Shown here: positions 30,878 through 49,511 of the stretch, one piece after another
How the letters are laid out: each line of letters begins with the position of its first letter
Position numbering within the stretch: the stretch's first letter is position 1
DNA from: an uncultured bacterium
GTDB lineage: Bacteria > Krumholzibacteriota > Krumholzibacteriia > LZORAL124-64-63
Direction: 5' to 3'
DNA: 64,000 bases
Assembly: GCA_963732385.1 (NCBI GenBank)
Contig: CAVSZB010000007.1
Location: 1,344,001 to 1,408,000 of the forward strand
Translations under genes and position numbers: made by a program
The notes under the pieces: generated by a model
What the model was told of the DNA's origin: nothing
Databases searched by the model: none
The model's input: only the letters and a program-made list of their open reading frames with translations

Positions 30878-30946
30878 GCCGGCCCGGGCCGGCTGTTAAA
30901 CTGCCGCGGGGACCGTATGGGGCGGCCGCCGCGTGGGAGTGCGGAC

Positions 30947-31753
30947 ATGTGGCATTCCATCACCGGTTCGATCATCATCGACGTCCTCGACGTCCTGCTG
31001 GTGGCCTACCTGATGTACCGTTTGCTGTTGCTGGTCCAGGGCACCCGCGCGATCCAGATGTTCGCCGGTCTCGGCATCCTGCTTCTGCTCTCGTTCGCCT
31101 CGAGCGTCTTCGGCATGATCATGATCAATCGGATCATCGACACCCTGCAGACAGTGTGGGTGATCGCATTCATCATCCTGTTCCAGCCCGAGCTGCGCAC
31201 GGCGCTCACCCATCTCGGACGCAAGCGCGGCCTGAAAATCTTCGGCGGCGAGGAGGAGATCCCGGCTGAGCATGAGATCCTCACCGCGGTGGAGCGGCTG
31301 TCGCGACGGGGCCTGGGGGCGTTGATCGTCATCGAGCGCGACATCAACCTCGGACGCTGGATCCGCACCGGCACCCAGCTCAACGCCGACATCTCGGCCG
31401 CGACGCTGGAGTCCATCTTCACCGTGCCGGGACCACTGCACGACGGCGCCGTCATCATCAGCCAGGCGAAAATCACCGCCGCCGCCTGCATCCTGCCCAA
31501 CACCGAGCGCGAGGAACTGGGCTACGTGCTCGGCACGCGCCACCGCGCCGCGATCGGCTTGACCGAGGTTTCCGACGCGCTGGTAATCGTCGTCTCCGAA
31601 GAGACCCGCGCCGTGTCACTGGCGCACGATGGCGAGATCCGCCGCGGCCTGTCGATCGAGGACCTCACGACGGAACTCAATCGCGTCCTGCTCAAGTCCG
31701 GCTCCGGCCGGCGCCCGCGCAAGCGCCCCGCCCTGAAGACGACCCCGGCCTGA
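30947..31753 (+). CDS. cdaA: Diadenylate cyclase CdaA/DacA
   Basis: 3 TM, ILFQPELR, PLHDGA, GTRHRAA, VVSEET. Confidence 0.93.
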   Translation: MWHSITGSIIIDVLDVLLVAYLMYRLLLLVQGTRAIQMFAGLGILLLLSFASSVFGMIMINRIIDTLQTVWVIAFIILFQPELRTALTHLGRKRGLKIFGGEEEIPAEHEILTAVERLSRRGLGALIVIERDINLGRWIRTGTQLNADISAATLESIFTVPGPLHDGAVIISQAKITAAACILPNTEREELGYVLGTRHRAAIGLTEVSDALVIVVSEETRAVSLAHDGEIRRGLSIEDLTTELNRVLLKSGSGRRPRKRPALKTTPA

Positions 31754-32469
31754 TCGCCCAGCGGCAGACCCGCAGCCCCAGACCACTCTCCTGCGCCACC
31801 TCCACCAGCGCCGCGGCCAACGCCAGTTGCAGCCGCCGGCCCAGTCGGGGATCGCCCGGCAGGAGCGACCGGGGCAGACATGCGTGACCCGAGCCGTGCA
31901 GCAGCCGTTCGGCGGCCAGGGAGTCGTCCGGCGCCACCTGCCGGCAGCGCAGCCTCACCGTCCACCACTCGCCCCGCCGACTACAGATGCAATCTTCCAG
32001 CCGCAGGCCCGGCGCGAGCCGGCGGCGCAGCCGTATTTCGGCCGCCGCCAGGACCCGGCGCCCCCATTCTCCCCGTTCCACTCCACATTCCCTCCCGTGC
32101 GCGTGGAGATCGCGGCGTTCCGTGGCCAGGTGGGGCGGGAGACCGGCGGGGGGACGAGGGCGCCCTGTCCTCCCTGCCGGTCTCGCCGCGCGAAGTGACG
32201 AGTCCTCCCAGCCCCGTCCCTTCGCCCCCACATTCGCTTTGCAAACCGGGGACCAATCAGGGACAGGAGGCGCCCACCTGCTTATCTAATTATCCAGCAA
32301 CGAGTTATATATTTAACGAGTCTCCAGTATGGCCGCCGGGAGGTGTCATCCCCCGGAACCGACAACGACGCCTCGAAGCCGATTTCGCGGCAAAGCGAAG
32401 AACCCGAACCGTTTGCGGAGGTGTCAACCGGGGGTGGCAGGGTGCCCAGGGATGACAGGGGTCCGGGGG

Positions 32470-34044
32470 CTACGCGGAGAGGGCCGCAATCGCCTGGGAA
32501 TCCGTGGCGGCCGGTTCCCCGAGACGCAGACGCCCGTCGCGCAGCAGGCGGACGAAGGCTTTGACCACCTTGCCGTCGAACTGCGTGCCGGTCTTGCGCT
32601 CGAGGTTGTCGATCGCCTCATCGAGACCGATCGGATTGGAGTAGGTGCGGGTCGTGGTCATGGCGTCGAACGCGTCGGCCACGGCGACGATCTTGGCGAT
32701 TAACGGGATCTGGGCGCCGTGCAGACCGTCAGGATAGCCGGCGCCGTCCACCCGTTCGTGATGGTGGCGCACGGCCAGGCGCGCTTCGTGCAGGAAGTCG
32801 ATGTGCGCCAGGATCCGGTCCCCCATCGCGGGGTGCCGGCGGATCATGGCGAACTCCTCCTCGGTGAGATCGCCGTGCTTGTTGAGCACGTGCTCGAAGA
32901 TGCCAATCTTGCCGACGTCGTGCAGGGAGGCGCCGTACTCCACCTGCTGCAGGGCCGCCTCGTCGAGCCCCAGCTCGACCGCGATGGCGCCCGCGTACTT
33001 CGCCACCCGCGCCGTGTGACCGCGCGTGTAGCGGTCCTTGGCCTCGATGGCGGTCACCAGGGCCTCGATCGTGTTGACGTAGGTGCGCTGCAGCTTGCTG
33101 TACAGATTGGAGTTCTGCAGGGCGATGGCGAACGAATTGCCCATCGTTTCCAGCATCCGGATGTCGCCGGCGGAGTAGGGCTGCCCGGTGATCCGGGGGC
33201 CGAGGGCGACCGCTCCACCGATGCGGGTGCGATCGCGGATCGGGACCATCAGCGCGAATCCGAGCGCCGCCAGCTCCGCGGGCACGATCCCCTCCAGCGG
33301 CGAGGCGCCGGCCGACTCCAGCCAATCCCGCCAGCCGGCGCGTTCCGCCTCGGTGACGGCGAGGCAGACCTCGCGATCGATGCCCTTGACCGCGACCAGC
33401 GACATCGGAGCGCCGTTGCCATCGCCGGCGAAGAGCGCGGCGGACAGCGCGCCCACCTGTCCGACGATCGAGAGCAGCAGCACATTCGCCTGCTGACCGG
33501 CCTCGAGCGACGCGGCCATCTCCTGCGTCAGTTCGAGCAGGGTCTGCTGCTGACGCAGCTGCTGCTTCAGGTTGCGATTGACGCGGTCCAGTTCGCCCAG
33601 CCCGCGGTCCACGCGCCGACGGAGGTCGAGGTTGCGCCCACGCAGGTCGGCCGAGACGGCCCAGTCGCGCAGCGCATACGCCACGCGTCCGAGCAGCTCC
33701 TCCGGGCCGCAATCGCGGAAAAAGGCGTCGTGGACGCCGGCCGCGAAAACCGTCTCGCGGGTCGCCGGCTTGTCGTCGGGCAGCAGCATGAGCACGACCG
33801 TGTCGGCGATGGCGTCGGTTTCGAACAGATCGCGGCAGACGAGCAAGCCTCCGCCCGGCAGATCGAAGTCGATCAGCACGACCGGGGGCGCTTCGACACA
33901 GAAAAGGCTGATCGCTTCCGGTCCGGTGCCGGCGCGCAAACAGGTGTACCCCGCCTGGCGGAGCGTCGAACTGATCCTTTCGCACGCGCCGCCGGACGGT
34001 CCCGCCAGCAGGATACGGTGTCCCTCGCCGGGAACAACGTTCAT
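32470..34044 (-). CDS. Atypical REC - coiled coil - GAF - HD-GYP phosphodiesterase (catalytic motifs intact)
   Basis: KDRYTRGHTARV, LHDVGK, HP..G, HHERVDGAGYP, VADAFDAM..R.Y; REC lacks the N-terminal acidic pair. Confidence 0.9.
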   Translation of the reverse strand: MNVVPGEGHRILLAGPSGGACERISSTLRQAGYTCLRAGTGPEAISLFCVEAPPVVLIDFDLPGGGLLVCRDLFETDAIADTVVLMLLPDDKPATRETVFAAGVHDAFFRDCGPEELLGRVAYALRDWAVSADLRGRNLDLRRRVDRGLGELDRVNRNLKQQLRQQQTLLELTQEMAASLEAGQQANVLLLSIVGQVGALSAALFAGDGNGAPMSLVAVKGIDREVCLAVTEAERAGWRDWLESAGASPLEGIVPAELAALGFALMVPIRDRTRIGGAVALGPRITGQPYSAGDIRMLETMGNSFAIALQNSNLYSKLQRTYVNTIEALVTAIEAKDRYTRGHTARVAKYAGAIAVELGLDEAALQQVEYGASLHDVGKIGIFEHVLNKHGDLTEEEFAMIRRHPAMGDRILAHIDFLHEARLAVRHHHERVDGAGYPDGLHGAQIPLIAKIVAVADAFDAMTTTRTYSNPIGLDEAIDNLERKTGTQFDGKVVKAFVRLLRDGRLRLGEPAATDSQAIAALSA

Positions 34045-36416
34045 ACCGCCGCCTCCACGGGCCGTTCTGCTTCCGCGGATGACGGAGCGCGGCGCGTGAG
34101 CGACTCCTCGCGTGCCAGCACACGCAGGAACGCCTCGACGATATCCGGGTCGTAGCGCATGCCCCAGTTCTCGTTCAGGATGCTGATGGCCTCGGCATCG
34201 GACAGCGCAGTGCGGTAGGAAAGTTCCGACACCATCGCCACATAACTCTCGACCACGGACACGATGCGCGCGCTCAGCGGGATGGCGCGTCCCTGCAGGC
34301 CCCGCGGGTACCCTTCGCCGTTGAAACGTTCATGGTGGCAGAGCACGACCTCGTGGATCGTCGGAGGCAGTTGCAACGGCCCGAGCAGTTCCACGCCGGT
34401 TTCGGGGTGTCCCTTGATCTGTTTCCACTCGTTCTCGGTCAGCTTGCGGGGTGAGCGCAACACCAGGTCGCTGATCGGGATCATGCCGATATCGCGCAGC
34501 ACGGTGCCGTAGACGAGATCGCGCATCTTCTCGGACGGGAAGCTCATCTCTCGCGCCACCTCGGCCACCAGGCCCGACACCCGCTCGGTCACCGAACTGC
34601 CGGCCTGATGGCGCTGTTCGATAAGCGAGACGAGGGTACGGATCACGCCGATGTTCTGCTCATGCGTGTTCTGGAGCATGCGCGCGTTGTCCATCGCGAT
34701 GGCGGCCTGGTTGAGCAGCGTCGAAAGGAAATCGAGATCGAGATCGGGTCGGCTGCCCCGCACGCTGCCGCCGAGCAGAAGCACGCCGAGCAGCTGGCCC
34801 CGCGTGCGCAGAGGCGCCACGAAAGTGAAACCGGCCTGCTCCAGCGGGTCCCGGAAGCGGTGCAACAGCGGCGGCAGTTCCTCGACCGGAACCGGCAGCG
34901 GCTGCTCGGCGAACCACCGCTGCATCTGCACCCCGAAAGGGGTCAGCGGAGGCACCTGTTCGATCTCGATGCCGCGGCAGATGCGCGGCGTGAGCAGGTC
35001 TCCCTCCAGTTCCAGCACCGCCACGGCGCGCACGCCGAGCTGTGCCGTCACCGTCACGCAGAGCAGGTCCATCAGACGCGCGCCGTCACGCACCCGCGCG
35101 AAATCCTCGGAGAGCGAGAACAGTGCCTGCATCTGCTTGACCTTGCGGCGCAGTTCGGCAGACAGGTTCCGGCCGGTGGAGTCAGTGGCGTCGGTGGCGT
35201 CGGTGGCATCCGTCACGTCGCACGGCAGCGCCCCCGGAACCGGTGCGGCGGACGCGCCGTCGGCGACCGCCGGCGAGGGCGGCGCCGCGAGCCAGCGGGC
35301 CAGCAGCGAGAGGGCGAAGGTATCACTCACCCCGTACTCGCGCCCTTCGCCGCCCCGCCTCACCACGGCCGCGGCGACGAGCACACCGTCACGCAAGACC
35401 GGCAGCACCATGTCGGCGCGCAGTTCCGCCAGCAGGTGGACCTCGCCCTCGGCGAGCTCGAGATCGCCCGCGTCCAGCAGCGAGAGCGGGCGCCCGGACG
35501 CCGCCAGCGCGGAAGCCAGCCGTCCGGACGCCGGGAACGCGGCGCCGCTGTCAGGATCGACCAGCGCCTCGCCCTGCCGGACGCAGAAAGTGACCTCTCC
35601 CGCAAGATCGAAGCTGTGCAGCAGATCGCGTAGCGGACCCGCCATGGCCGCGGCGTCGGGCGCCTCGCGCAGCGCCTGCAGCGCGCTGTCGAGCGGAACG
35701 AACTTGGGGCGGGCGACCCCGCCGGCGCCGGCGATATCCGGACCGACGGAGGGGACGGCCGCCCGCCCCAGATTCTGATCGTGGCCGGGAACGGCTTCGC
35801 CATCGTGGGTCTCGGCGGCAGAATCGTCGCTGGTTCCTGTCGACGCGCCGGCGTGCGCCACGAAAGAATCGAGCAGCATGTCGAGCGTGCTGTCGGAACG
35901 CGGCGAAGCCCGGTCGGCCGGCGACACGCCGGGGTCGCCCCCGACGGGCTCAGTTGCCTGGTCGGGAGACGGCGCCGCTGACGCGGACCCGACCGGCGCG
36001 GCCTCCGGGGCGGCGGACGAAGTCGTCATTCCCGGCGCGCTCGGCGCCGCCGCCACTTCGTCGCGGACCGCCGCCAGCGCGGTTTCGGCGTCATCGATGG
36101 TAGGAAAGTTGCGGAAGGGGATCTCGCCGAACTGCAGCGTCAGGAAGCGCCGCACGACGTCGTTCACGCCGACGAACACCGCCTCGCCGCCACGCGCGGT
36201 CAGCTCGCGCTGGAAGCCGGCGAAAAGGGCCGCGGCGCCGCCGCCGACCGCGCCGAGCTCCGTCAGATCGAGAATGAGATACAGCTTGTCGTTGGCGAGA
36301 CACTTGTCAGCAAACTCGCGCAGCCGCTCTTTCTCGGCGCGTCCGACCGATCCGCTCAGGCTCACCCCGAACAGGCCGGGCTGCGCCAGTTTCAGCGACT
36401 CGAAGTTGATCGCCAC
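34041..36416 (-). CDS. STAS - linker - GAF - GAF - degenerate HD-GYP protein
   Basis: STAS-like LILDLTEL..V...; GAF ends (LLNQAAIAMDNARM); HHERFNGEGYP present but LRDIGM replaces LHDIGK; GTG start approximate. Confidence 0.82.
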   Translation of the reverse strand: MAINFESLKLAQPGLFGVSLSGSVGRAEKERLREFADKCLANDKLYLILDLTELGAVGGGAAALFAGFQRELTARGGEAVFVGVNDVVRRFLTLQFGEIPFRNFPTIDDAETALAAVRDEVAAAPSAPGMTTSSAAPEAAPVGSASAAPSPDQATEPVGGDPGVSPADRASPRSDSTLDMLLDSFVAHAGASTGTSDDSAAETHDGEAVPGHDQNLGRAAVPSVGPDIAGAGGVARPKFVPLDSALQALREAPDAAAMAGPLRDLLHSFDLAGEVTFCVRQGEALVDPDSGAAFPASGRLASALAASGRPLSLLDAGDLELAEGEVHLLAELRADMVLPVLRDGVLVAAAVVRRGGEGREYGVSDTFALSLLARWLAAPPSPAVADGASAAPVPGALPCDVTDATDATDATDSTGRNLSAELRRKVKQMQALFSLSEDFARVRDGARLMDLLCVTVTAQLGVRAVAVLELEGDLLTPRICRGIEIEQVPPLTPFGVQMQRWFAEQPLPVPVEELPPLLHRFRDPLEQAGFTFVAPLRTRGQLLGVLLLGGSVRGSRPDLDLDFLSTLLNQAAIAMDNARMLQNTHEQNIGVIRTLVSLIEQRHQAGSSVTERVSGLVAEVAREMSFPSEKMRDLVYGTVLRDIGMIPISDLVLRSPRKLTENEWKQIKGHPETGVELLGPLQLPPTIHEVVLCHHERFNGEGYPRGLQGRAIPLSARIVSVVESYVAMVSELSYRTALSDAEAISILNENWGMRYDPDIVEAFLRVLAREESLTRRAPSSAEAERPVEAAV

Positions 36417-36527
36417 GACACCCGCCCCCCTGGCGCCGCCGTGTCCGCCGGAAACAGTTTCCGAGGGACGCCCTGCCGACCGTCGCAACCAGGCCCCGCC
36501 AGGCCACGACGGTCGGCGCCATCCATG

Positions 36528-36752
36528 CTAAACGAGTTCCTCGGTGAGCCAGCGATCCAGCACACTGCGCAGGAACCGCCATTCGCTGCCGACCTTCTTC
36601 GCGGGGATCTTGCCTTCCTTGGCAAGCCGGCACACCGTCTTGACATGCATCTTCAGATAATCAGCCGCATCCACAGAGGTCATGACCTTGTTGGCGGCAG
36701 AGTCCTCCCCGCCGAGGTGGTTGATCGCGTAGTCCTTGAAACGGTCGTCCAT
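36528..36752 (-). CDS. Small HTH_17 (excisionase/BldC-like) DNA-binding protein, 74 aa
   Basis: VMTSVDAADYLKMHVKTVCRLAKEGKIPAKKVGSEWRF; SD-like GAGGAG/GGAG upstream. Confidence 0.9.
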   Translation of the reverse strand: MDDRFKDYAINHLGGEDSAANKVMTSVDAADYLKMHVKTVCRLAKEGKIPAKKVGSEWRFLRSVLDRWLTEELV

Positions 36753-36809
36753 GGCTCCGGCTCCTCTCGACCCCCGAGATGCACAAACGATGGGTGTGGC
36801 GGACTGAAC

Positions 36810-36825
36810 AGCAACTCCCATGCCC
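36810..36825 (-). promoter_or_regulatory. Putative sigma54 (-24/-12) promoter
   Basis: Minus strand GGGCATGGGAGTTGCT vs consensus TGGCACGNNNNTTGCW, exact GG-N10-GC spacing, 57 bp upstream of the HTH ATG. Confidence 0.6.
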
Positions 36826-36975
36826 GGGATAGACAACGGCCGGATCGGGCTCTCAGGGCCGCGGCGAGGGCTTTGGCTGGTGTTTAACGGTACGGAGAGA
36901 CAGCGCGCGACACGCTGCGGACGCGCGCGGCATTGCAAACCGCCACTCGAGCCGGGAAGGTTTCGCACCCGGAGA

Positions 36976-39069
36976 TCAGACAAGCTGGGACCGCAGTTCA
37001 TCCACGAGATAGGGGGGGGTCCAGACGCCGGCGGCCCCCAGACGCCGCGCGAGCCGGCGGGCCGGTTCGCCGCTGTTGCCGGTCGCCAGGATGACCGGCC
37101 CCGGCGCCGTTTCCCCGTGTTGCGCCAACAGGGCGAGGAGTCCGTCCAGACAGCGGTCCGGCTCGGCGTTGTCGCAGATGATCGCATCGATGCTTCGGGT
37201 CCGCAGGCACTCGCGCGCCTCCCCCGGTGCGGCACAGACAGTGACGGCGTAGCCGGACTTGACCAGCTTCTCCTCCAGGTCATCAGCGCGGAACCGGCTG
37301 GCCACCAGCAGGAGGATGCTCGCCTCGGGCGACCCGACCGGCACGCCCGTGGCGGCGGGGCTCGGCAAAGCGGGGGCGACGGGGGACCATTCGACCGTCA
37401 GATCCCCGCCGGCCCCGTCGACCGGCTCGACATGACTCAGCCGCAGCGACAGGACCTTCTCGATGTCCAGCAGCGGCAGCACGACCCCGTTCGCCGTTTC
37501 CACGCCGCTCCTGGCGACCGCCTCCCAGCCCACCGGTGTCTCCACGTAGCGGACTACGGCAACGCGCCGCGCCGTGCCCGTGGTGAGCAGCGCCACCCGC
37601 TTCTCGACCAGTCCGACGAGAGCCAGGTGGCCGCCCCCGTCGGCCGTGGAGGTCGGCATCAGCATGTCCACCCAGGACGCCAGGTCAATGGCGAGCAGGC
37701 TCTGGTTCTCGCGGACCAGCGTATCACCGTCAGGCGAGCTGCGACGTTGCCACCCCTGCGCCGACACGACCGCCTCCACGAGGTGCAGCGGCGCCGCCAC
37801 CTCCGCGTCCACCAGAGACAGGACGCACACTTCGGGAGCGCCGGCGAGGTGTAACGGCAGCACGACCTGCAGACAGCCCTCGCCATGCGATCCGAAATGC
37901 GCGTGCACGAGCGCACCGTCCTGCCGCAGCCGCCGCAGCGCGACGCGCAGGCTGGGGGACTCGATCAGGAAGTCCTCCTCGAGCAGGTGGCCAAGCGCCC
38001 GCGCCGCCTCGGCCGGCAGACGACCCGGAGGGCGGCGGAACTCGGCTGTCACCCGCTCGGCTCCCAGGTCCACCAGCAGCAGCCAGCGCGGAGCTCCGGG
38101 GCCGATCGCCTGGCAGAGGTCGGTCGCCATCAGCCCGAGCAGCCGCCCATAGCGGCTCTGCTCCTCCTCCGGGAACAGATCATCCACCCCGGGCGACCCG
38201 GGCGGCGCTCCCTCGACCGTCAGCCCCGGCACGCGCCAGCGCAGCGTCCACGGTTCGCGGCCCTCGCCACAGGCCCCCGGGTCCTCTTTCACGGCCGTCA
38301 GCCCCTCGCGCCACCCCGCTTTGAGCGCCTCCTGGAACAGCGTCCCGCCCGGCAACAGCGGCAGCGCCTCGTGGGGATCCTTGGTCTCCGCCTCGGCCGA
38401 CGCTGCGTCGCGTTCGTAGTCCTCCGTCTCGAACAACGCATCGCCGAGCGAACGTACCTCGCGCCAACGCTGTTGGCGCCGGGTGCGCTCCTCGTCGTTC
38501 CGTGACCCGTCGGTCGGCCGGGGATGAGGCACCTTGGTGACGAGCCGCTCGATGATCGCGAGCATCGATTCCCACGACACGACAGCCTGCGGGTCGTCGA
38601 GTCCCTCGAGACGCAGCTGGGCCGGCTCCGGTTCCGGACGCGGCGGCGCGCCGGACGCCGCCCGCGCACGCGCGGTGGCGTGCTCGCGCGCCGCGGCGGC
38701 GAAGCCCTGGCGCAGGCGCGCCACGCGCTCCGGAGCGACCAGTTCTTCCGGCGTGCGCCCGGCATCCAGGCCCTCGATGAGCACTTCCTCGAAGGCCACG
38801 ATCTCGCGCAACACCGGCTCGTAGGCGGCCAGGGCGCCGTGCGGGTTTTCGGCGATCCAGTTGAGGAGTTCGAGCAGGATGCGCAGCCAGTCGTGCAGCA
38901 CCGTCACGCCGAGCAGTTCGCTGCTGCCGGCGAGCAACCGCGTCGCGATGACCGCCCGGGGCAGCGAGGCGGGGGCCGGACCGTTCCAGCGGCCCTGCAC
39001 CGAAACCTCGCGCAGCCCGGCCAACTGCTCACGCAACTGCAGCGTAAAGAGCTGAATGAGATCATTCAT
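36976..39069 (-). CDS. Degenerate CheA-like protein: Hpt-like - divergent middle - CheW-like - atypical REC
   Basis: Hpt-like helix ATRLLAGSSELLG without the His; CheW-like APLHLVEAVV...LLAIDL...RVALL...GVVLPLLD; REC DAIICD...VILATG...GAAGVWTPP. Confidence 0.65.
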   Translation of the reverse strand: MNDLIQLFTLQLREQLAGLREVSVQGRWNGPAPASLPRAVIATRLLAGSSELLGVTVLHDWLRILLELLNWIAENPHGALAAYEPVLREIVAFEEVLIEGLDAGRTPEELVAPERVARLRQGFAAAAREHATARARAASGAPPRPEPEPAQLRLEGLDDPQAVVSWESMLAIIERLVTKVPHPRPTDGSRNDEERTRRQQRWREVRSLGDALFETEDYERDAASAEAETKDPHEALPLLPGGTLFQEALKAGWREGLTAVKEDPGACGEGREPWTLRWRVPGLTVEGAPPGSPGVDDLFPEEEQSRYGRLLGLMATDLCQAIGPGAPRWLLLVDLGAERVTAEFRRPPGRLPAEAARALGHLLEEDFLIESPSLRVALRRLRQDGALVHAHFGSHGEGCLQVVLPLHLAGAPEVCVLSLVDAEVAAPLHLVEAVVSAQGWQRRSSPDGDTLVRENQSLLAIDLASWVDMLMPTSTADGGGHLALVGLVEKRVALLTTGTARRVAVVRYVETPVGWEAVARSGVETANGVVLPLLDIEKVLSLRLSHVEPVDGAGGDLTVEWSPVAPALPSPAATGVPVGSPEASILLLVASRFRADDLEEKLVKSGYAVTVCAAPGEARECLRTRSIDAIICDNAEPDRCLDGLLALLAQHGETAPGPVILATGNSGEPARRLARRLGAAGVWTPPYLVDELRSQLV

Positions 39070-39120
39070 GGGTGATGGCGGGCCGCACGTCCGCCCGGAC
39101 GGACGCGCGGCCCGCGGCCG

Positions 39121-40986
39121 TTACCCGAGGGCGACGGCGCCAAGTTCGTTAAGGTCGTAAATGTGATCGTCCTCCTCCTTCGCCAGCGATGTCGCAGGCG
39201 CCGGTGCCGGTTCCGGCGTCGGAGCATCGAGCGCGACCGCGCCGAATTCCACCAGATCGTAGATCCGGTCCTCCTCCGTGGGCACGGCCGGAGCCTCCGG
39301 CTCAGGCGTCTCGCCAGCTTCGATCCGCGGTTCCTCCGGCGCGAAGATCGAGCCGCTGAGCGGCCGAACCGACGCGGCGGCCGCCGTTGCCGGCGCCTCG
39401 TCGGAAGCGAAGAGGCGGAAGGCCGCGGGCGGTGGTGACGCATCCGGCTCCGGCGACGCCGACGCCGACGCCGACGCCGGGGCCGGCTCCGCAGCCACAG
39501 TCTCCTCCGGGCCGAGAGCCGGGTCGCCGAACGAATCGATCTCGAAACCACCGGAGCCGGCGGCGGGCTCCGGATCGGCGCTCATCTCGCACGGAACGCC
39601 GGTCAGTTCGGACAGAGCCCCCGCGAGCGCCTCGAGACGCGTGCCCTGCTCCGCGAAGGTCTGCACGAGGGCATCGGCATCGGCGCCGACCCGCACCAGT
39701 GCGGTCCTGAGATCTCCGGCCCGCGCGGCGCCACGGCGCCACGCCTCCGGTTCCGGGATGTCGCGCCCGGAGGCCGCGGCAATCTCGTCCATCTGAGCCT
39801 GCGCCCGGGCCAGCGCCGACCCCGTCGTCTCCTGATCGCGCGCCGCATTCTCGAGACGGGTCGCGATGCCCTGGAACTCGGTGACCAGGCTCTTGAGGCT
39901 CTCGGTGAGCGGGAAGAGGGTCTCGCCCCGCTCGCCCAGCCGCGTCACCTCGAGGGCGGTCTGGATCGCCAGACTGCCACCGCGGGCGACCAGGTCCTTG
40001 ATGGCGTGCGCGGTCTGGATCAACTGTCCCGCCTGGGCGCCGGCGGCCGCCGCCGGCAGCGCGTCGCGGACATCGACCAGCGACGGCACCCCGCACCGCT
40101 CGATCTCTTCCAGCGCACGCAGCTTCTCCGCGAAGGCGCCGGCCAGCCGCTGGGTATCGCTCCCGACGCGCTGCACCGCGGCCTGCAGGGCGCCCAATCG
40201 CCCGCCGGCACGGGCCTGCCAGCTGCGCGCCTCGGCAGCGGCGGTCGTGACCTGGCCGCCAGCCTCATGCAACCGCGACTCCAGATCCGCCTGCGCCATG
40301 CGCAGCCGGTCGATCTCCTCGTGCAACAGCGCCGCGCCCGAAGCCGCGCGTCCCACCAGAGGCATCTCGTACACCTCTATCACGGCGGATCGCTCACCAT
40401 CGAGCAGTCCCTTGCCGAGCCGGGTCAGTTCCCCTTCCAGGACCGCGGCCCGGACCAACGCCAACCGCTGCATGCGTTCGCGGGCCCGCACCGCGTCGAG
40501 GAACCGCGACAGATCCCCTTCGGCCCGCAGCGAGGGATCCTGCCACCCGCTTTCACTGTCCAGGTCGAGGGCACCCAGCCGGGCCAGCAGCGCGCGGTGG
40601 CGCTGGTGCTCTTTCTGGTAGCGGGCTGCCAGGGTGCTGATGGCCCAGCCGGCGAACGACGCCAGCGCCAGCGCACAGCCCATGGCGAGACCAAGTCCGG
40701 TCAGGCCGCGCACATCGAGTGGCGTCTTGAAACCGCCGCGCGCCGCCACGAAAGCGGCTGCTGCCGCGAGCACGACGAGCAGGGCGCTCAGCGCGCCCGG
40801 CAACCACGGCGGCTGCAACCCGTCGAACAGCCCCTGGCGGGGAGGCGCCGGCGGTGCGACCGCACGTTCCGAGGTCGTGTCCCACGCTTCCCAGCCCGTG
40901 ACGACCGGCGAGTCCCCGGCAGCTGGCGAGGCCTTACTTACTTCGGCGTCGGCGTCCACGCCGAAATCGTCCTCTCGCTCGCTCAT
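39121..40986 (-). CDS. Divergent methyl-accepting-chemotaxis-like membrane protein
   Basis: 2 TMs, long coiled coil, hairpin-tip-like SLAIQTALEVTRLGERGETLFPLTESLKSL; SD GAAAGGA. Confidence 0.65.
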   Translation of the reverse strand: MSEREDDFGVDADAEVSKASPAAGDSPVVTGWEAWDTTSERAVAPPAPPRQGLFDGLQPPWLPGALSALLVVLAAAAAFVAARGGFKTPLDVRGLTGLGLAMGCALALASFAGWAISTLAARYQKEHQRHRALLARLGALDLDSESGWQDPSLRAEGDLSRFLDAVRARERMQRLALVRAAVLEGELTRLGKGLLDGERSAVIEVYEMPLVGRAASGAALLHEEIDRLRMAQADLESRLHEAGGQVTTAAAEARSWQARAGGRLGALQAAVQRVGSDTQRLAGAFAEKLRALEEIERCGVPSLVDVRDALPAAAAGAQAGQLIQTAHAIKDLVARGGSLAIQTALEVTRLGERGETLFPLTESLKSLVTEFQGIATRLENAARDQETTGSALARAQAQMDEIAAASGRDIPEPEAWRRGAARAGDLRTALVRVGADADALVQTFAEQGTRLEALAGALSELTGVPCEMSADPEPAAGSGGFEIDSFGDPALGPEETVAAEPAPASASASASPEPDASPPPAAFRLFASDEAPATAAAASVRPLSGSIFAPEEPRIEAGETPEPEAPAVPTEEDRIYDLVEFGAVALDAPTPEPAPAPATSLAKEEDDHIYDLNELGAVALG

Positions 40987-41160
40987 TCCGGCTTCCTTTC
41001 GTTGCTCACAGCCAGGACCGCAACGCGCGGCCACGCCAGCCGGACACACGATCCTGGCGCGACCGGGGCATCCCGGCTCTCCCTGCATTTCGACCGGGAA
41101 GCGGGGGACCGTAGCGGATTCTGTCGCGAAAAGAAGACGGGCCAGAGACGGCGGCCGGAC

Positions 41161-42066
41161 TCAGATCTCCCGCAGGAAATCGACGATCTCGGCATGAAGA
41201 CCGGCGGGACCGTGGATCTGGAGGATCCGGTGCCCCCCCTCGGGGTAGAGCCGGAAGCGCGAGGCCTTGTGCCGCGCCTTGCGTTGGACCATTCGCAGGG
41301 AGACGGCCGCAATGCGCTCATCGTCCTGGCACTGCGCCGCGTAGACCGGCATGTCGAGCCGGGAGAGCAGCGGCCGCGCCTTTTCCATCGCCTCGAGTAT
41401 TTCGAGGCTCCAGCCGTACTTGCGCCGCACCCACTGCAGGCGGTGCACATTCAACCGCAACAACAGGCGCACGAAGAGCGGGAGGCACGGTTCGAGGGCC
41501 GGCGCGAGCAGCACGACGCCCTGCGGTTTCTCCTCGCCTGCGAGATGGATGGCGATCGCCGAGCCGAAGCCCAGACCGACGACGTGCACACGCGGGCCCA
41601 CCTCGCGCAGGAACCTCAGCCGCAGCCGGGCCTCCTGCAGGCAGGCGCGCCAGAGAACATCACCCAGGCCAGGCGCAAGGTTGGCGCGGGTCGGCAAGAG
41701 AGGAGCGTAAACGCTGAAACCGGCGTCGTGGATCGCCTCGGCCAGCGGACGCATCTCGGCCGGCGTGGAGGTGGCGCCATGGAGGAGCAGGACCGCGTCC
41801 GCTCCCTCCGCTCCGCCGAGCATGATCGAACGGTCGACCGGCGGAATGCCCCGCCGTTCCTCCAGTTCCGCGCGCAGTTTCTGGTGGGCGCGCAGCAGAC
41901 TGGCGCGGGCGCGCGGCGTGTCGGGACGCTGCCCGCGGGTGGTTTCCAACTCCCAGGCGGTCAAAGCGTGCCGGATCGTCTCCGGCCGGACTGCCCGCTC
42001 GCGCTCCTTCTCATCCGCCGGAAGAGGGCCGCCGGACCGTGCCGTGCTGTCGCTTTCGCTCGCCAA
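41161..42066 (-). CDS. Carboxylesterase/monoacylglycerol-lipase-like alpha/beta fold protein lacking the catalytic Ser
   Basis: VLLLHGATSTP.EMR.LA...GFSVYAP.LP, VVGLGFGS, DDERI, GGH. Confidence 0.8.
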   Translation of the reverse strand: MASESDSTARSGGPLPADEKERERAVRPETIRHALTAWELETTRGQRPDTPRARASLLRAHQKLRAELEERRGIPPVDRSIMLGGAEGADAVLLLHGATSTPAEMRPLAEAIHDAGFSVYAPLLPTRANLAPGLGDVLWRACLQEARLRLRFLREVGPRVHVVGLGFGSAIAIHLAGEEKPQGVVLLAPALEPCLPLFVRLLLRLNVHRLQWVRRKYGWSLEILEAMEKARPLLSRLDMPVYAAQCQDDERIAAVSLRMVQRKARHKASRFRLYPEGGHRILQIHGPAGLHAEIVDFLREI

Positions 42067-42439
42067 ATCCTCATCCCCGTCCGCGGCGCGGGCCGCTCAG
42101 CCGATGTGCCCGGGCCGGTCGCAGATGACGTCCGGCCACGCTCCCGGTTCCCGACGAACCGACACCGCGTGATCCTGGTGCCTGCCGCTCAGGACGAAGG
42201 CCAGACCCCTGCCGGGCCGCTTCGCGGCCGGCAGGTCCGCCCCGGGATCATCTGAAATGAATAGGTCCTCCGGCGCGGTGACGCCAACCCTTTCCGGCGC
42301 TTCCCGGCAGATCAGCCCCTCCGATTTGCCGCTCGTGACCGCCACGCAGCCGGCGGCAGCCTCCCGGGCGGCTCTGCCGGCCGACCGGGCCGGGGGTCGC
42401 CCCGACACCCCCTCGACCTCAGGCGGGCTGGCGCGGGGC

Positions 42440-43615
42440 TCACGCAGAGGCGGCAGGCGGACCCTCCTTCCCACCGGATGCGGCGAGCGCGGCCAGCTCT
42501 GCATCGTAGCGAGGCGCCAGGCGCTCCCAGCAGAATGCGTCGCACGCGGGGGGCAGGCCGCAGACGTGCCCGCAGCGCCCCGCCAGAACGTCGCGCAAAA
42601 GCGCTGTCAGCCCCGCCTCGCCGTCGTAGAGATGCCGGCCCCGGCACTGGCGACCGTAGAGAGAGGGGTAGACCTGCTCACGCGGCAGCACGGCGAAGGC
42701 GCCGGCATGCACCGCTTCGGCGACCGCGATGCCAAAGTACTCCTGTGCCGCGCAACTGACGACCACATCCGCCCTCGCGAGCCAGGAATCGTAGCCCTGG
42801 CCCGCCGGCGCCTCCCCCCAGGCCACCACGCGCGAGCCGAGGCATTCGCGCAGCGGAGCGAATGCCTCCTCGCGGCCGCGCGGATCGCCGAGCAGGGCGA
42901 CCCGGAACGGCACCCCCTCGGCCGCAAGGCACCGCAGCGCGCCGACCAGCCACTCCGGACGCTTGTCGAACTCCCAGCGGTGGTTCCAGAGGATGAGCGG
43001 AGCTTCGCCATCGCGGGGCCAGGTCGGTCCGGCATCATCCGCGCACGGCCCGCCCAGATACGGCGCACCACCGTCGTCGGGACGACAGGCGCGGGCGAGG
43101 CCAACCGGCAAAACCGCACTTTTGGCCTCGATCCGGGGCCGCACGCCACGCGGGATCGCTTCGGGCATCCGACCGAGATAGGCGGGAATTCCATCCAGAA
43201 AAAGACCCCTGTGGTACTCGGAATTAAAGATCACGCGGTCGGCGGCCAGCGCCGACACGATGTTGGTGGCCCCGAAATGGAAGTCGAATTCCTCTTCCGG
43301 CGACAGGGGGTAGGTCAACTGGTTTTCGTGCATATAGAGTAGAAGGGGCTGGCGATCGTAGGGGGGATCGAGCATCCCGCGGAAGTCGGCCACGTTCAGG
43401 AAATCGGTGGCCAGGATCAGGTCGCACGGCGGCCGCGCAGCGTTGATCGCGTCGGCGAACCAGGGGGCGGCGCCTCGCAGGCGCCATTTCCAGAAGCGCG
43501 CCGGCAGCGTCCAGCCGTGGACCCGGTGGCCGGAACGGGCCGTTAATCCTTCCCGGAAGGCGCGATGCGAACCCCCGTCATACGGTTCTACGAACAGGAT
43601 ATCCAATGGTGACAA
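42440..43615 (-). CDS. DUF3524/GTDC1 (QTMAN-like) GT-B glycosyltransferase
   Basis: EPYDGGSH, LPARFWKWRLRG, YMHENQLTYP, NIVSALAAD...FNS.Y, ILWNHRWEFDK.P, EYFGIAVAEA, YP.LY: the motif series I recognise for this family. Confidence 0.88.
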   Translation of the reverse strand: MSPLDILFVEPYDGGSHRAFREGLTARSGHRVHGWTLPARFWKWRLRGAAPWFADAINAARPPCDLILATDFLNVADFRGMLDPPYDRQPLLLYMHENQLTYPLSPEEEFDFHFGATNIVSALAADRVIFNSEYHRGLFLDGIPAYLGRMPEAIPRGVRPRIEAKSAVLPVGLARACRPDDGGAPYLGGPCADDAGPTWPRDGEAPLILWNHRWEFDKRPEWLVGALRCLAAEGVPFRVALLGDPRGREEAFAPLRECLGSRVVAWGEAPAGQGYDSWLARADVVVSCAAQEYFGIAVAEAVHAGAFAVLPREQVYPSLYGRQCRGRHLYDGEAGLTALLRDVLAGRCGHVCGLPPACDAFCWERLAPRYDAELAALAASGGKEGPPAASA

Positions 43616-43676
43616 GGGGTTGTCCTCCCTGAACCCGTTCCGTAACGGCTGCGGACGCGGCGCGCAGTCCGCCGCG

Positions 43677-43706
43677 TTGATGCGGCCGGCCTCCTCATTA
43701 TATATT
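43677..43706 (+). promoter_or_regulatory. Possible sigma70 promoter for queF in the divergent GT/queF spacer
   Basis: TTGATG followed 16-18 bp later by TATATA/TATATT in an AT-rich patch. Confidence 0.4.
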
Positions 43707-43797
43707 AGCAGGGCGCGGCCCCGGTATCACCTCCACGGGCAGATCGTGAGCGCAGGTTGACGGTCTGTCTGTGGCCCGCCTGAAAGGACCCCTTCCC

Positions 43798-44178
43798 ATG
43801 CCATCGAGCCCGGCGCGTGAGATCGAGACCTTCCCCAATCCCAATCCGGAACGGGACTACGAAATCGCGTTCGACTGTCCGGAGTTCACCTGTCTCTGCC
43901 CGCTGACCGGACAGCCCGACTTCGCCCGCTTCCAGATCACCTATGTGCCGGACGGGACCTGCGTGGAACTGAAGTCGCTCAAGCTCTATCTCTGGTCGTA
44001 CCGGAACGAAGGAGCCTTCCACGAGGCGGTCACCAACCGGATCGCCGACGACCTGATCGCGGCCGTGCGGCCGCGGCGTCTCGCGGTCGCCGGAGACTGG
44101 TTCGTGCGCGGGGGAATCGCCACGCGGGTGCTCGTCACTTACGGACAGACCGACACCGGCGCTCAGGAGGCCCCTTGA
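43798..44178 (+). CDS. queF: NADPH-dependent preQ0 reductase (unimodular QueF)
   Basis: [24 protein letters not shown] (QueF motif), FHE, RGGI; SD GAAAGGA. Confidence 0.96.
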
Positions 44179-44247
44179 GCGTGACTCCCGGGGTCGACGC
44201 TTCGCCGCGCGACGTCACCGGCGCCGACCTCATCATCGACGGCAGCA

Positions 44248-45264
44248 TCACGACCTGAGCTCATCCGGCGGCACGACGAACGACAGCGCGCGTCCGCAGC
44301 CCGGACAGTGCGCGCCGTCGCGCAGCAGGACGCGCGTGGCGAACCCCTCGCGCGCGACACACAACTCACTGCAGTGCGGACAGACCGTGTCCGCGCCGCC
44401 GCGCAGCCGGACATTCCCCACGTAGACGTAATGCAGCTTCCGACGCGCGAACGCGGCGGCGCGGGCGAGCGTGGCCGACGGCGTGGGCGGCGCGCTGAAC
44501 TTCCAGTCGGGCCGGTAGGCGGAAAAATGCAGCGGCACGTCGCGCCCCACCTCGGCCACGAAATCGACCAGGCGCCCGATCTGCGCCGCCTCGTCGTTAC
44601 AGCCCGGGATGACAAGATTCGTCACCTCGAGATGCACGCCCAACTCCCGGCAGGTCCGGATCGTGGCCAGCACCGGCGCCAGGCTCGCCCCGCAGATCTG
44701 CCGGTAGAAGCCGTCGTCCATCGCCTTGAGGTCGATGTTCGCGGCGTCGACCAGCGGCAGCAGCTGGCGCAGTGGTTCCGGGTTGAGGAAACCGTTCGAT
44801 ACGATGACGTTGCGCAGTCCGGCCGCGCGGGCCAGCCGCGCCGTATCCCGTACGAATTCGTACCAGACGAGCGGCTCGCTGTAGGTGAACGCCACGCCGA
44901 TCGAATGGCGCGCCAGCGCGAGCGCGACCACCTCCTCAGGCGCAGAGACGGCGGCGGCCGCAGCGCGTCCCTGGCTGAGCGTCCAGTTCTGGCAGAACCG
45001 GCAGTGGAGGTTGCACCCCTGCGCGGCGATCGACAGGATCGAAGCCCCGGGGTGGAAATGGTAGAGCGGCTTCTTCTCGATCGGATCGACGGCGGTCGAG
45101 ACGATGCGGCCGTACTCCTTCGCGATCATGCGCCCACCGGCATTGGTGCGCGACCCGCAGGGGCCGTCGCGCCCGTCCGGCAGCCGGCAGCCGTGCGGAC
45201 AGAGCTCGCACTGGACCGCGCCGTCGGGCAGGGCGCTCCACCAGGCCGCCACGTGCGTCACCAT
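44248..45264 (-). CDS. amrS: AmmeMemoRadiSam system radical SAM enzyme
   Basis: CELCPHGC, DPIEKKPLYHFHPG, GCNLHCRFCQNW, AFTYSEP, NIDLK, PLHFS.Y.P, YVYVGN, two C-terminal CxxC. Confidence 0.93.
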   Translation of the reverse strand: MVTHVAAWWSALPDGAVQCELCPHGCRLPDGRDGPCGSRTNAGGRMIAKEYGRIVSTAVDPIEKKPLYHFHPGASILSIAAQGCNLHCRFCQNWTLSQGRAAAAAVSAPEEVVALALARHSIGVAFTYSEPLVWYEFVRDTARLARAAGLRNVIVSNGFLNPEPLRQLLPLVDAANIDLKAMDDGFYRQICGASLAPVLATIRTCRELGVHLEVTNLVIPGCNDEAAQIGRLVDFVAEVGRDVPLHFSAYRPDWKFSAPPTPSATLARAAAFARRKLHYVYVGNVRLRGGADTVCPHCSELCVAREGFATRVLLRDGAHCPGCGRALSFVVPPDELRS

Positions 45265-46352
45265 GGCGCCTCCGGCAACCGCCCGCCGTTGGCAACGACC
45301 GTGGCGGCGTTGCGCCGCAGGCCGTCGGGATGGGCGCGCCAGAGCGGCGACCGGCAAAAGCGCCGGCGGAACTCCTCCGCGTCGATTTCGAGCAGGTCGG
45401 CCAGGCTCGCCTGGGCATGCGCCGGATCGAGCCCGTACTCCGGACGGACCGCCCCGCCGAAACGCGCCGCCCGACGGTTCCAGGGACAGACCGCCTGGCA
45501 GATGTCGCAGCCAAACAGCCGTCCCCCCTGGCGGGCCGCCTCGCCCACCGGCAGACGGCCGTGCCATTCGATCGTCCAGGTGGAGATGCAGCGGTTGGCG
45601 TCGATCACGAACGGGATGTCGAGCGCTCCGGTGGGACAGGCGTCCTGACATAGCCGGCAGGAACCGCAGCGCGAGGCCGGTCCCGGCCCGGCCGTGCGGG
45701 ACGCCGAAACGGAGGCGGTTCGCGGCGTCGCGCCCCAGAGCGGGGCCGCCGCCGGCGCTCCCGCTGCCGGCAACCCGTCCACCGCCAGTCCGACTGCGGC
45801 CACGCCGAGGAACAGCCCCGATCCAAGCCGCTCATGGATCAGGCAGCTGTTGCGCCCGAAGAAACCGAGCCCGGCGAGCCAGGCGTACTCCCGCTCCAGA
45901 TAGGGTCCGGTATCGACCGCGGCGTGCGCAGGGAACGGGCCGAGCGCCCGACGCAGGTCATCGACCACCCCCTTCACATCGGAGAGCAGGAGGTCATGGT
46001 AATCGCGCCCGCGCGCGTAGCGGGCCACACCGTCGGTCCAGGGACGACCGGGCGCGGCGCCCTCCCACGGCGAGCGATCGTCGGGCGACCACCCGGCCAC
46101 ATAACGCTGCGCGAAGACGAGCAGCGCGCGCGCCCAGGGGCGCTGCACGGTCGGATCAACGCGCGCGTCCGGATCGCGGGCGAGCCAGGCGAGACCGGCG
46201 TGCCGGCCGTCCGCCAGCCAGGCGTGAAAGGTGTCGGCATGCGGCAGCGGACAGGGCAGCGCCACCGCACCGGCCAACGCGATCCCGCGCGGCGGGCAGA
46301 ACTCGCCCAGCAACCGGGCCAGGCGCTCCGACGTGACGCGCGGGTCCGTCAT
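45258..46352 (-). CDS. queG: tRNA epoxyqueuosine(34) reductase (cobalamin-dependent)
   Basis: VARYARGRDYH, VDTGP.LER..A..AGLG..G.N, CGSCRLCQDACPTGA, DANRCIS..TIE, FGCDICQAVCPWN. Confidence 0.94.
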   Translation of the reverse strand: MTDPRVTSERLARLLGEFCPPRGIALAGAVALPCPLPHADTFHAWLADGRHAGLAWLARDPDARVDPTVQRPWARALLVFAQRYVAGWSPDDRSPWEGAAPGRPWTDGVARYARGRDYHDLLLSDVKGVVDDLRRALGPFPAHAAVDTGPYLEREYAWLAGLGFFGRNSCLIHERLGSGLFLGVAAVGLAVDGLPAAGAPAAAPLWGATPRTASVSASRTAGPGPASRCGSCRLCQDACPTGALDIPFVIDANRCISTWTIEWHGRLPVGEAARQGGRLFGCDICQAVCPWNRRAARFGGAVRPEYGLDPAHAQASLADLLEIDAEEFRRRFCRSPLWRAHPDGLRRNAATVVANGGRLPEAPW

Positions 46353-46362
46353 GCCATCCACC

Positions 46363-47328
46363 TCAGGAACGCGCCGGCGGGACAAGCCGCGCCACCGCGT
46401 CGTCGTATCCGGCGAGCAGACGCGCCACGACTGCGGCCACGGTCGGCACGTCGTCGATCAATCCGGCCACCTGGCCGATCTCGAGCTCGCCCTCCTCCAG
46501 ATCCCCCTCGAGCATGCCGCGGCGCGCGCGCCCCTCGCCCAGCAACTCCGTCAGCGTCTCCCGCGACGCGCCGGCCGCCTCGAGCCGCATGATCTCGTCA
46601 CGGAAGCGGTTGCGCAACAGCCGCACCGGCACGAGCGGCTTGAGACAGAGCTGCGTGTCGGCCGGACCGGCCGCCACCACCGCCCGCTTCCAGTCCGGAT
46701 GCCCCGACGACTCCTCCGTGATCGCGAATCGCGACCCCACCTGCACCCCCTCCGCCCCGAGCGCCAGCGCCGCCGCCAGTTGCGCCCCGGTGGCGATCCC
46801 CCCCGCCGCGATGACAGGTATCTTCACGGCAGCGACGCACTGCGGCACGAGCACCAGCGTTGTCAGTTCCTCGCGCCCGTTGTGCCCCCCCGCCTCGAAC
46901 CCCTCGCACACCACCGCATCGCATCCCGCCTCCTCGCACTTGCGCGCCAGATCGGGATGCGCCACCACGTGCGCGCTGATGCAGCCCTCGCTCTTGAGCC
47001 GCCCCACGATCCGCTTCGGAGACCCGGCCGACGTGACGAAGATGCGCACCCCCTCCGTCAGCGCGACCTCGAGACACGCGGCGGCGTGAGGGTAGAACAG
47101 CGGCAGGTTCACGCCGAACGGGCGGTCGGTGAGCGCGCGCGTGGCGCGGATCTGCTCGTGCAGGAGATCGGGCCGCAGGGAACCGGCGCCGAGCAGCCCG
47201 AGACAGCCGGCCTCGGCCGCAGCGCCGGCGAGTCGCGCGCCGGAGTTATAGACCATGCCGGCCTGGACGATCGGATGGGCGATGCCGAACAGCTCGCAGA
47301 CGCGGTTGCGGGGCCAACGGGAGGTCAT
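46363..47328 (-). CDS. FabK / nitronate-monooxygenase-family flavoenzyme
   Basis: PIVQAGM, TDRPFGVN, EGFEAGGHNG, PVIAAGGI, GVQVGSRF, GQVAGLI. Confidence 0.9.
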   Translation of the reverse strand: MTSRWPRNRVCELFGIAHPIVQAGMVYNSGARLAGAAAEAGCLGLLGAGSLRPDLLHEQIRATRALTDRPFGVNLPLFYPHAAACLEVALTEGVRIFVTSAGSPKRIVGRLKSEGCISAHVVAHPDLARKCEEAGCDAVVCEGFEAGGHNGREELTTLVLVPQCVAAVKIPVIAAGGIATGAQLAAALALGAEGVQVGSRFAITEESSGHPDWKRAVVAAGPADTQLCLKPLVPVRLLRNRFRDEIMRLEAAGASRETLTELLGEGRARRGMLEGDLEEGELEIGQVAGLIDDVPTVAAVVARLLAGYDDAVARLVPPARS

Positions 47329-49228: not shown

Positions 49229-49511
49229 GGTCCCTCCTGGTCGGACGGCGACGGAGCGGTCACGGGGGGAGCGGACAGGCGGCGCAACCCCTGAGCGCAG
49301 GCCTGATCCCACCACGCTACGGCCGACCCGTCAAACCGCAACTGAATTAGTCGTGGATCTGCTCTTCGCGGCAGGACAGCCCGCGTCGCCTGCCCTGGCC
49401 AGTTCGCGGGACGCGGCCAGATCGCACAAGCGGTGAGATGACGTGACCTGATTGAAAACTCGCTTGCAGTCGGCTGCACATCAGGAATCAAGCCGGTCTG
49501 ACGAGGGCCGG

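Follow-up and report, generated by a model that had tools for sequence, protein, structure and literature searches.

A chemoreceptor-derived membrane protein and a CheA-type pseudokinase conserved beside two HD-GYP genes across families of Krumholzibacteriota

The window analysed here, 64,000 nucleotides of contig CAVSZB010000007.1 (assembly GCA_963732385.1, positions 1,344,001 to 1,408,000), comes from a Krumholzibacteriota genome and carries two adjacent genes whose products we call P0001 and P0002. P0001 descends from a methyl-accepting chemotaxis protein (MCP) and P0002 from a hybrid of CheA and a receiver (REC) with a single histidine phosphotransfer (Hpt) domain. The pair has lost the catalytic residues of its ancestors, is under purifying selection and keeps a fixed order upstream of a helix-turn-helix (HTH) gene and two HD-GYP genes, with which its domains are lost in a nested pattern. 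Our reading, to which we assign a probability of about one half, is that the pair now works as a membrane-anchored, phosphorylation-independent scaffold for the two HD-GYP proteins and the turnover of cyclic di-GMP (c-di-GMP), possibly in connection with type IV pili. Orthologues were gathered from 201 genomes of the class and then read in gene context; families of the phylum are numbered f1 to f9, and the window genome belongs to f1. Coordinates are window positions, on the minus strand unless a plus is given.

Both reading frames, described as long and uninterrupted in the initial annotation, are intact and lie head to tail with a gap of 51 bases: P0001 has 621 residues (39121..40986) and P0002 has 697 (36976..39069). 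P0001 is composed of a transmembrane (TM) hairpin, a helical or coiled-coil body, a degenerate signalling tip, a proline/alanine linker and two C-terminal repeats. Its two TM helices, predicted from hydropathy and the structural model at residues 61–85 and 95–120 approximately (40627..40806), are separated by a loop of roughly 10 residues, which in relatives reaches about 35, so that no periplasmic sensor domain is present; from the sequence alone, a near-absence of a periplasmic domain had been noticed. No relevant Pfam match was found for P0001, and neither protein has an NCBIfam match at E 1e-4; orthologues of P0001 match PF00015 at E 1e-5, below the cut-off. A family profile of 31 rows compared with the PDB retrieves solved MCPs first (E 1.4e-12), and the tip motif quoted in the initial annotation (residues 338–367, 39886..39975) falls on the tip of the solved Thermotoga maritima receptor. 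By profile comparison the signalling hairpin is thus homologous to MCPsignal; the GRGF stretch of the solved tip is replaced in the window protein and in all aligned homologues. The AlphaFold model shows the TM hairpin, long helices and a disordered tail, and a chemoreceptor chain (E 3e-4) is its sole Foldseek match under E 0.001. The TM hairpin and a C-terminal DLxxxGA motif, in one to four copies, are nearly always kept in the membrane protein, even where the CheA-like gene is gone. In P0001 the motif takes the form of two YDLxExGAVxL repeats, at residues 574–586 (39229..39267) and 608–621 (39124..39165), and the GA of the second is invariant in 31 aligned homologues.

P0002 holds the core domains P1, P3, P4 and P5 in CheA order, followed by REC. 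The Hpt, CheW and REC order first proposed for it is borne out by fold matches of the model and by alignment to hybrid kinases, which add a P3-like hairpin placed by model and profile alignment only. The P1/Hpt-like bundle spans residues 1–135 (38665..39069), the predicted P3-like dimerisation hairpin about 163–218 (38416..38583; low to middling confidence), the P4/HATPase-like fold 243–407 (37849..38343), the P5/CheW-like domain 410–546 (37432..37842) and the pseudo-receiver 582–697 (36979..37326). With Pfam, P0002 gives a receiver match alone, below the cut-off, and the CheA-like profile searched against PDB sequences returned, among the matches listed (at least 60), receiver domains only. 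Among 20 CheA-like orthologues scanned, five exceed the Pfam cut-off for CheW and several have weak HATPase_c or Hpt matches. The model of P0002 (predicted local distance difference test 76) matches CheA in Foldseek at E 1e-12. Its parts align with CheA P1 (1i5n; Z 14.0, root-mean-square deviation (rmsd) 2.7, 127 aligned), CheA P4–P5 (6s1k_B; Z 15.3, rmsd 6.8, 265 aligned), CheW (2qdl; Z 14.1, rmsd 2.6, 132 aligned) and REC (Z about 15). Profile and structure comparisons therefore find the MCP, Hpt and CheW similarity on which the initial domain assignment depended.

The catalytic losses were read from a profile–profile alignment of the family to seven intact CheA–REC hybrids (P 100%, E 2e-46, 648 columns). 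Arg44 (38938–38940) stands at the Hpt His and Ala47 at the Lys that follows it; Asp317 replaces the N-box Asn, Arg346 replaces the G1 Asp, and the G2 box is deleted. In the receiver, Val589 and Ala590 occupy the acidic pair and Pro685 the Lys, so the absences reported in the initial annotation hold, with the addition that the phospho-acceptor Asp633 and Thr663 are still present. The Hpt His, N-box Asn, G1 Asp and G2 box are required for CheA autophosphorylation. With a predicted kinase fold, lost catalytic residues and conservation across a clade, P0002 is best classed as a putative CheA-type histidine pseudokinase, and its P4 domain is among the most degraded of the family.

A profile search of 1.84 billion representatives returned about 100 family members, the near-full-length ones at 250 bits or more, followed by intact CheA–receiver hybrids of 730–780 residues at 150–180 bits. 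Residues were compared over 97 family rows (93 of 150 search matches judged to be family members, with four close homologues), gaps not being counted. The Hpt site, filled in 75 rows, is Arg in 49, Lys in 16, Thr and Ser in three each, Asn in two, and Gly and His in one each. Asp takes the N-box Asn position in 81 of 82 rows, no G2 motif occurs in the family rows listed, and the G1 Asp is kept in 78 of 84, the five rows with Arg belonging to the window's lineage. Family receivers are split between Asp (33/68) and Glu (35/68) at the acceptor; the second acid of the pair is found in 1/67 and the Lys in 39/68. No family member examined holds the full catalytic set. One row, P0039, has a His at the Hpt site but an N-box Asp and no G2, and since it is nested within the family tree its His is probably a regain or a local retention. 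Another, P0045, is the sole row with a complete-looking receiver.

In a quick P4–P5 tree that combined 24 rows of the family with 16 intact CheAs, with search matches as references, the family forms one clade (Shimodaira–Hasegawa-like approximate likelihood ratio test 100) nested among intact single-Hpt CheA–REC hybrids. It branches apart from multi-Hpt hybrids and from the window genome's own CheA, and the window's lineage carries a further long stem. The ratio of non-synonymous to synonymous substitution rates (dN/dS, simple counting method) over eight genome pairs was 0.11–0.28 for the CheA-like and 0.19–0.39 for the MCP-like gene; within the window's genus it was 0.09 for P1/Hpt, 0.16 for P4, 0.13 for the tip and 0.85 for the linker. 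The long form of P0002 (E 1e-25) is present in 103 of 105 genomes of f2, f3, f4, f6, f7, f8 and f9, as a rule at one locus each. Recent decay, named in the initial annotation among the outcomes that would overturn it, is contradicted by this family-wide long form, the near-universal loss of the His, dN/dS well under 1 and the lack of an intact CheA in the five carriers tested; the pattern points to purifying selection on the pair.

The pair does not stand alone and forms the upstream half of a module. The order is alpha/beta-hydrolase, (nitrilase-like gene), membrane protein, pseudo-CheA, HTH gene, STAS-GAF-degenerate HD-GYP gene and REC-GAF-HD-GYP gene. It holds in 34 of the first 40 loci fetched; the remaining six are unrelated receiver matches. 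In the window, the HTH gene (36528..36752) encodes an HTH_17 (excisionase-like) protein of 74 residues, assigned by Pfam, which is the best conserved of the locus. It is followed by a STAS-GAF-(GAF)-degenerate HD-GYP protein of 815 residues (34041..36488), in which RD replaces HD and other metal ligands are altered, and by a REC-GAF-HD-GYP protein of 524 residues (32470..34044) with intact HD-GYP motifs. The RD substitution occurs in every full-length aligned row of the former, and the HD-GYP motifs are kept in every row of the latter, whose receiver is complete-looking in f3, f4 and f8 and degenerate in the window lineage and f6.

Lineages differ in how much of this module they retain. The long form is absent from all 12 f5 genomes and present in 3 of 83 other f1 genomes besides the window genome; in most of these 83 the membrane protein is retained (47 with a narrower profile) and its partner is shortened. 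The receiver has been dropped in f3, f7 and f9, and most of f1 has P1 with the receiver, P1 only or no CheA-like gene. The receptor tip has gone in f2 and part of f6, and the whole pair in f5 and one f1 clade. We scored 84 non-redundant loci, not a random sample, as each had to hold the hydrolase and to extend 5.5 kb or more past the downstream end of the HTH gene. The membrane protein and the degenerate HD domain occur together in 67 and are both missing in 16; the membrane protein is alone in one and the HD domain in none. P4 plus CheW and the intact HD-GYP gene are both present in 38 and both absent in 41, with P4 plus CheW alone in five and the enzyme alone in none. The lost pieces sit on opposite flanks of the retained HTH gene and therefore reflect separate deletions, and the HD domain is trimmed off where STAS-GAF survives. 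No relocated orthologues were found in 5+5 test genomes, where only generic HD-GYP or MCP matches occur elsewhere.

The tip and P4 plus CheW show no such coupling. Both the tip and P4 plus CheW are found in 36 of the 84 loci and neither in 17, and an obligatory contact was rejected by the 24 loci with a tip and no P4 plus CheW and the seven with P4 plus CheW and no detectable tip. The initial proposal of a scaffold acting without phosphotransfer thus keeps its support from ancestry, residue loss and long-term conservation, and gives up the stand-alone pair and the necessary tip–CheW contact; signalling by the pair and a complex of its two proteins are putative.

No cheR, cheB, cheW or stand-alone receiver was found among the 44 window proteins scanned, in agreement with the absence of cheR/B/W/Y first reported. 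Genome-wide family searches place the ordinary chemotaxis set of the window genome at two other sites; these clusters (C7:887000-893000 and C8:329800-336700) between them hold a CheA with two Hpt matches, CheX- and CheY-like proteins, CheW, MCP, CheR, CheD, HDOD and CheB. CheW (E 1e-8) was not found in 22/23 f4, 11/13 f8 and 7/10 f6 genomes, and these CheW-less genomes nearly all carry the long form. Five carriers picked for missing CheW (95–98% complete, one a single contig) have neither a CheA dimerisation domain (0/5) nor an MCP over the Pfam cut-off (0/5); CheR is present in one, and P0001 has a single loose match, at residue 381, to a methylation consensus. The pair accordingly does not lean on an ordinary Che system. 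A flagellar output was rejected on the distribution of FliG, which is found in 82/83 f1 and 12/12 f5 genomes but in 2/23 f4, 1/13 f8 and 8/43 f3 genomes, and so is rare in families that keep the full module.

In the scaffold that we propose, the TM hairpin would anchor the receptor-like protein, and its input would be a membrane or protein cue because no sensor domain exists. The likely target of the C-terminal repeats, carried on a long flexible linker, is the degenerate HD-GYP domain, which may serve as a c-di-GMP-binding or docking subunit. The pseudo-CheA, a predicted dimer through P3, would use its P4/CheW part to link the receptor body with the intact REC-GAF-HD-GYP enzyme, and output would be allosteric or positional control of that enzyme with no phosphotransfer from the pseudo-CheA. 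Local breakdown of c-di-GMP would be set in this manner, possibly for type IV pilus behaviour. A complex prediction for the tail (P0001 566–621) with whole P0002 scored 0.00 in two runs and is uninformative either way. The most extended form of the idea is rather more doubtful. It holds that an entire chemosensory core was turned phosphorylation-free, a sensorless receptor and dead CheA recruiting a dead/active HD-GYP pair through a new tail motif and acting on local c-di-GMP for pili in genomes without a working CheA, each step of the stripping being preserved in some lineage and the window lineage being the last in its family with all domains.

Several observations weigh against the scaffold. 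According to the hydrolase tree the co-losses amount to two or three independent events, too few for a sign test to reach significance, and joint loss is also seen among genes of one regulon whose products do not touch. Five loci keep P4 plus CheW without an intact enzyme, although one of them, L043, is a truncated locus. A separate sigma-54-type promoter precedes the HTH and HD-GYP genes in most lineages (below), so the pair may be transcribed apart from them. The G1 Asp survives in 78/84 rows and a few receivers have both Asp and Lys, and some chemistry may therefore remain outside the window's lineage. c-di-GMP is the presumed substrate by membership of the HD-GYP family. As for the pili, pilM occurs without the pair in 7 of 12 f5 genomes, and 11 scattered genomes of pair-bearing lineages have no pilM match. 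The pilus link is a lead that rests on about one event and runs one way.

That event is also the starting point of the alternative that fares best, which we nonetheless consider unlikely: the pair may serve the type IV pilus machine itself as a landmark at the pole or membrane, the HD-GYP genes being co-lost through shared behaviour with no contact. pilM was found in 162 of the 201 genomes and in none of 23 genomes of seven pair-less f1 genera, which mostly have one weak PilT-family match or none. These genomes form one clade (93/96), and in 11 of the 23 loci, read directly, the hydrolase adjoins the HTH gene. The pair, pilM and a strong pilT copy are thus missing together in a single f1 clade, no pair-bearing clade lacking pilM was seen, and a long Pro/Ala linker ending in short repeats would suit a recruiting tail. 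The f5 genomes with pilM speak against a landmark, as do the pilus genes themselves, which are unlinked to the locus (1.1 Mb away in the window genome), and the domain-precise trimming of the HD domain is left unexplained.

Less probable still is that the pair is not wholly dead, with P4 acting as a nucleotide or metal switch or the receiver phosphorylated by an unlinked kinase, in a DivL-like phospho- or nucleotide-sensing relay. The near-invariant N-box Asp, the G1 Asp, the acceptor Asp of about half of the receivers, P0045, P0039 and the complete-looking receiver of the intact HD-GYP protein in f3, f4 and f8 would all fit such a relay. It sits poorly with the window protein, which has Arg for the G1 Asp, no G2 and a degenerate receiver like that of its neighbouring enzyme, with Glu at the acceptor in the remaining receivers, and with the loss of the receiver by three families and of P4 by most of f1.

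The signals between the pseudo-CheA and HTH genes raise the improbable alternative that the pair controls a sigma-54 activator driving the HTH/HD-GYP operon, as Myxococcus Che3 controls CrdA. A sigma-54-type −24/−12 site (36811..36825) lies about 60 bases before the HTH start, and sites of this type, at a fixed distance from that gene, were found in 29/34 loci, and in 64/79 loci against 0/79 control windows. About 105 bases upstream of it is a conserved element containing TTGCAA (36929..36941), recognised by eye in many spacers, which may be an activator site. The locus holds no activator gene, however. The site persists in every one of the 10 pair-less loci that were scored, and loci of the f2 and f3 type, which have a short spacer, lack it while carrying the pair. 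Some relatives also have an AT-rich stretch that resembles an integration host factor site. The 179 bases that precede the membrane-protein gene show no sigma-54-type spacing, and a search of 32000-42600 gave no sigma-70-type site. In two metatranscriptome runs of one study, relatives of about 90% identity have contigs over all 30 bins; these matches are contigs from libraries that may contain DNA, with no silent control, and are not proof of transcription.

A role as partner or inhibitor of the ordinary chemotaxis array, as for the split kinase CheA3/CheA4 of Cereibacter (Rhodobacter) sphaeroides, is very improbable. The window genome has CheA, CheW, MCP, CheR and CheB elsewhere, and CheA3/CheA4 resembles our family in that a non-functional kinase domain of a CheA homologue is kept in shape. 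According to the sections of PMC10782961 on this system, however, CheA3 retains the phosphorylated P1 His and acts with an active CheA4, whereas the family lacks the His and many carriers have no active CheA; the absence of CheW from most f4, f8 and f6 genomes and of an intact CheA from 5/5 tested carriers largely refutes the idea for CheW-less genomes. Least probable of all is a decaying relic without function, since stepwise domain loss, complete loss in two lineages and the long branch of the window's lineage, which would suit one, are met by reading frames that stay intact in seven families, by dN/dS values well below 1, in the window lineage as well, and by invariant non-catalytic motifs.

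The Wsp system comprises the MCP WspA, the CheA–receiver hybrid WspE and the c-di-GMP output protein WspR. Our pair recalls this type, of the alternative cellular functions (ACF) class, in having an MCP beside a single-Hpt CheA–REC hybrid without P2 and a c-di-GMP enzyme in the cluster, and the nearest intact relatives of the pseudo-CheA, the hybrids of 730–780 residues, share the layout. It differs in lacking the Hpt His, N-box Asn, G2 and a sensor domain, with no cheW, cheR or cheB in the locus; its output consists of a dead and an intact HD-GYP protein and not of a cyclase, and a C-terminal repeat motif and an HTH gene are added. An ACF-class ancestor is our reading of the tree, whose references are search matches and not named members of the class. 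FrzE is a further CheA–REC hybrid. ChpA/FrzE hybrids of the type IV pili (Tfp) class share the hybrid architecture with the family, along with a His-less Hpt in ChpA and the possible pilus link; ChpA as described in the relevant sections of PMC10782961, where both classes are defined, combines several His-bearing Hpt domains with an active kinase, whereas the single Hpt of the family has no His, and in the P4–P5 tree the family separates from the multi-Hpt hybrids included. DivL and PsmA, in the portions of PMC4211667 and PMC12963549 that concern them, are clade-conserved kinase scaffolds reused for protein binding or polar organisation and are the functional precedents; they are of the HisKA type, whereas here a CheA-type protein has degenerated alongside its receptor partner and a neighbouring enzyme.

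A conserved His defines a working Hpt domain in the account of PMC10782961, and the parts of that survey of 13,673 CheAs that treat dead kinases and His-less Hpt domains describe them only in proteins that keep a live His. The word Krumholz is absent from its main text, and the passages on the phylum in PMC10936416 mention only flagellar chemotaxis genes. We found no published description of the pair in the literature searched, which left most subscription journals outside, and the pair is real and ancient and, apparently, undescribed in print. Standard annotation misses it, with no Pfam or NCBIfam call above cut-off for either protein, and surveys of CheA diversity may for this reason have overlooked such families. 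CheA-centred pathways are defined by histidine phosphorylation, and here a pair is kept without it across most families of a phylum, often as the sole Che-derived genes of a genome; receptor–CheA architecture thus has a selectable role apart from phosphotransfer. The system supplies a natural deletion series (the full form, the form without the receiver, P1 with the receiver, P1 by itself, and forms lacking the CheA-like gene, the tip or the pair) that shows which parts matter, along with a short new candidate binding motif and soluble domains that can be studied in Escherichia coli despite the uncultured host.

Listed homologues of the degenerate HD-GYP protein (at least 120) come from Krumholzibacteria and one Deltaproteobacteria-labelled record only, and a metagenome scan with the divergent member P0096 gave no match. 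A protein-cluster lookup returned Eisenbacteria-rich clusters for both proteins (0.93 and 0.91), and a link to the sister phylum is an unconfirmed lead.

The HTH_17 protein is found in 190 of the 201 genomes (124 of 125 good ones) at about 70–90% identity, persists even where the pair and both HD-GYP domains are gone, and appears to be the real hub of the locus as well as a marker of the phylum. A dN/dS of 0.82 for its gene in the window pair stems from an open reading frame called too long and was discarded as an artefact. The upstream alpha/beta-hydrolase (41161..42066) constantly accompanies the HTH gene, in loci that carry the pair and in loci that lack it. Its nucleophile Ser is Gly in the window and Ser in the same-genus locus L031; among 100 distinct orthologues the position is Ser in 55, another residue in 44 and a gap in one, a further pseudo-enzyme trend in the locus. 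A carbon-nitrogen hydrolase, named nitrilase-like from its sequence, lies between hydrolase and membrane-protein genes in f2, f3, f4, f7, f8 and f9 (L039-L052, L068-L079) and is absent from that slot in the window.

Rfam gave no match in 28000-46000. Further upstream, 42440-43615 encodes a PF12038 tRNA-queuosine mannosyltransferase N-terminal domain (E 2e-57) with a GT1 domain, possibly a queuosine glycosylation enzyme; the gene precedes the hydrolase in f1 loci. In the window it adjoins queF (43771-44178, plus strand) and lies near queG (45258-46385), and queF was not seen beside it in other fetched loci. An FHA-GAF-SpoIIE (PP2C) phosphatase gene lies 6.5 kb upstream (47561-49315). In most loci, whether or not the pair is present, folP, ftsH and a gene that reads as a CdaA-type diadenylate cyclase (30917-31753, plus strand) run convergently towards the HD-GYP genes from the other side of the module.

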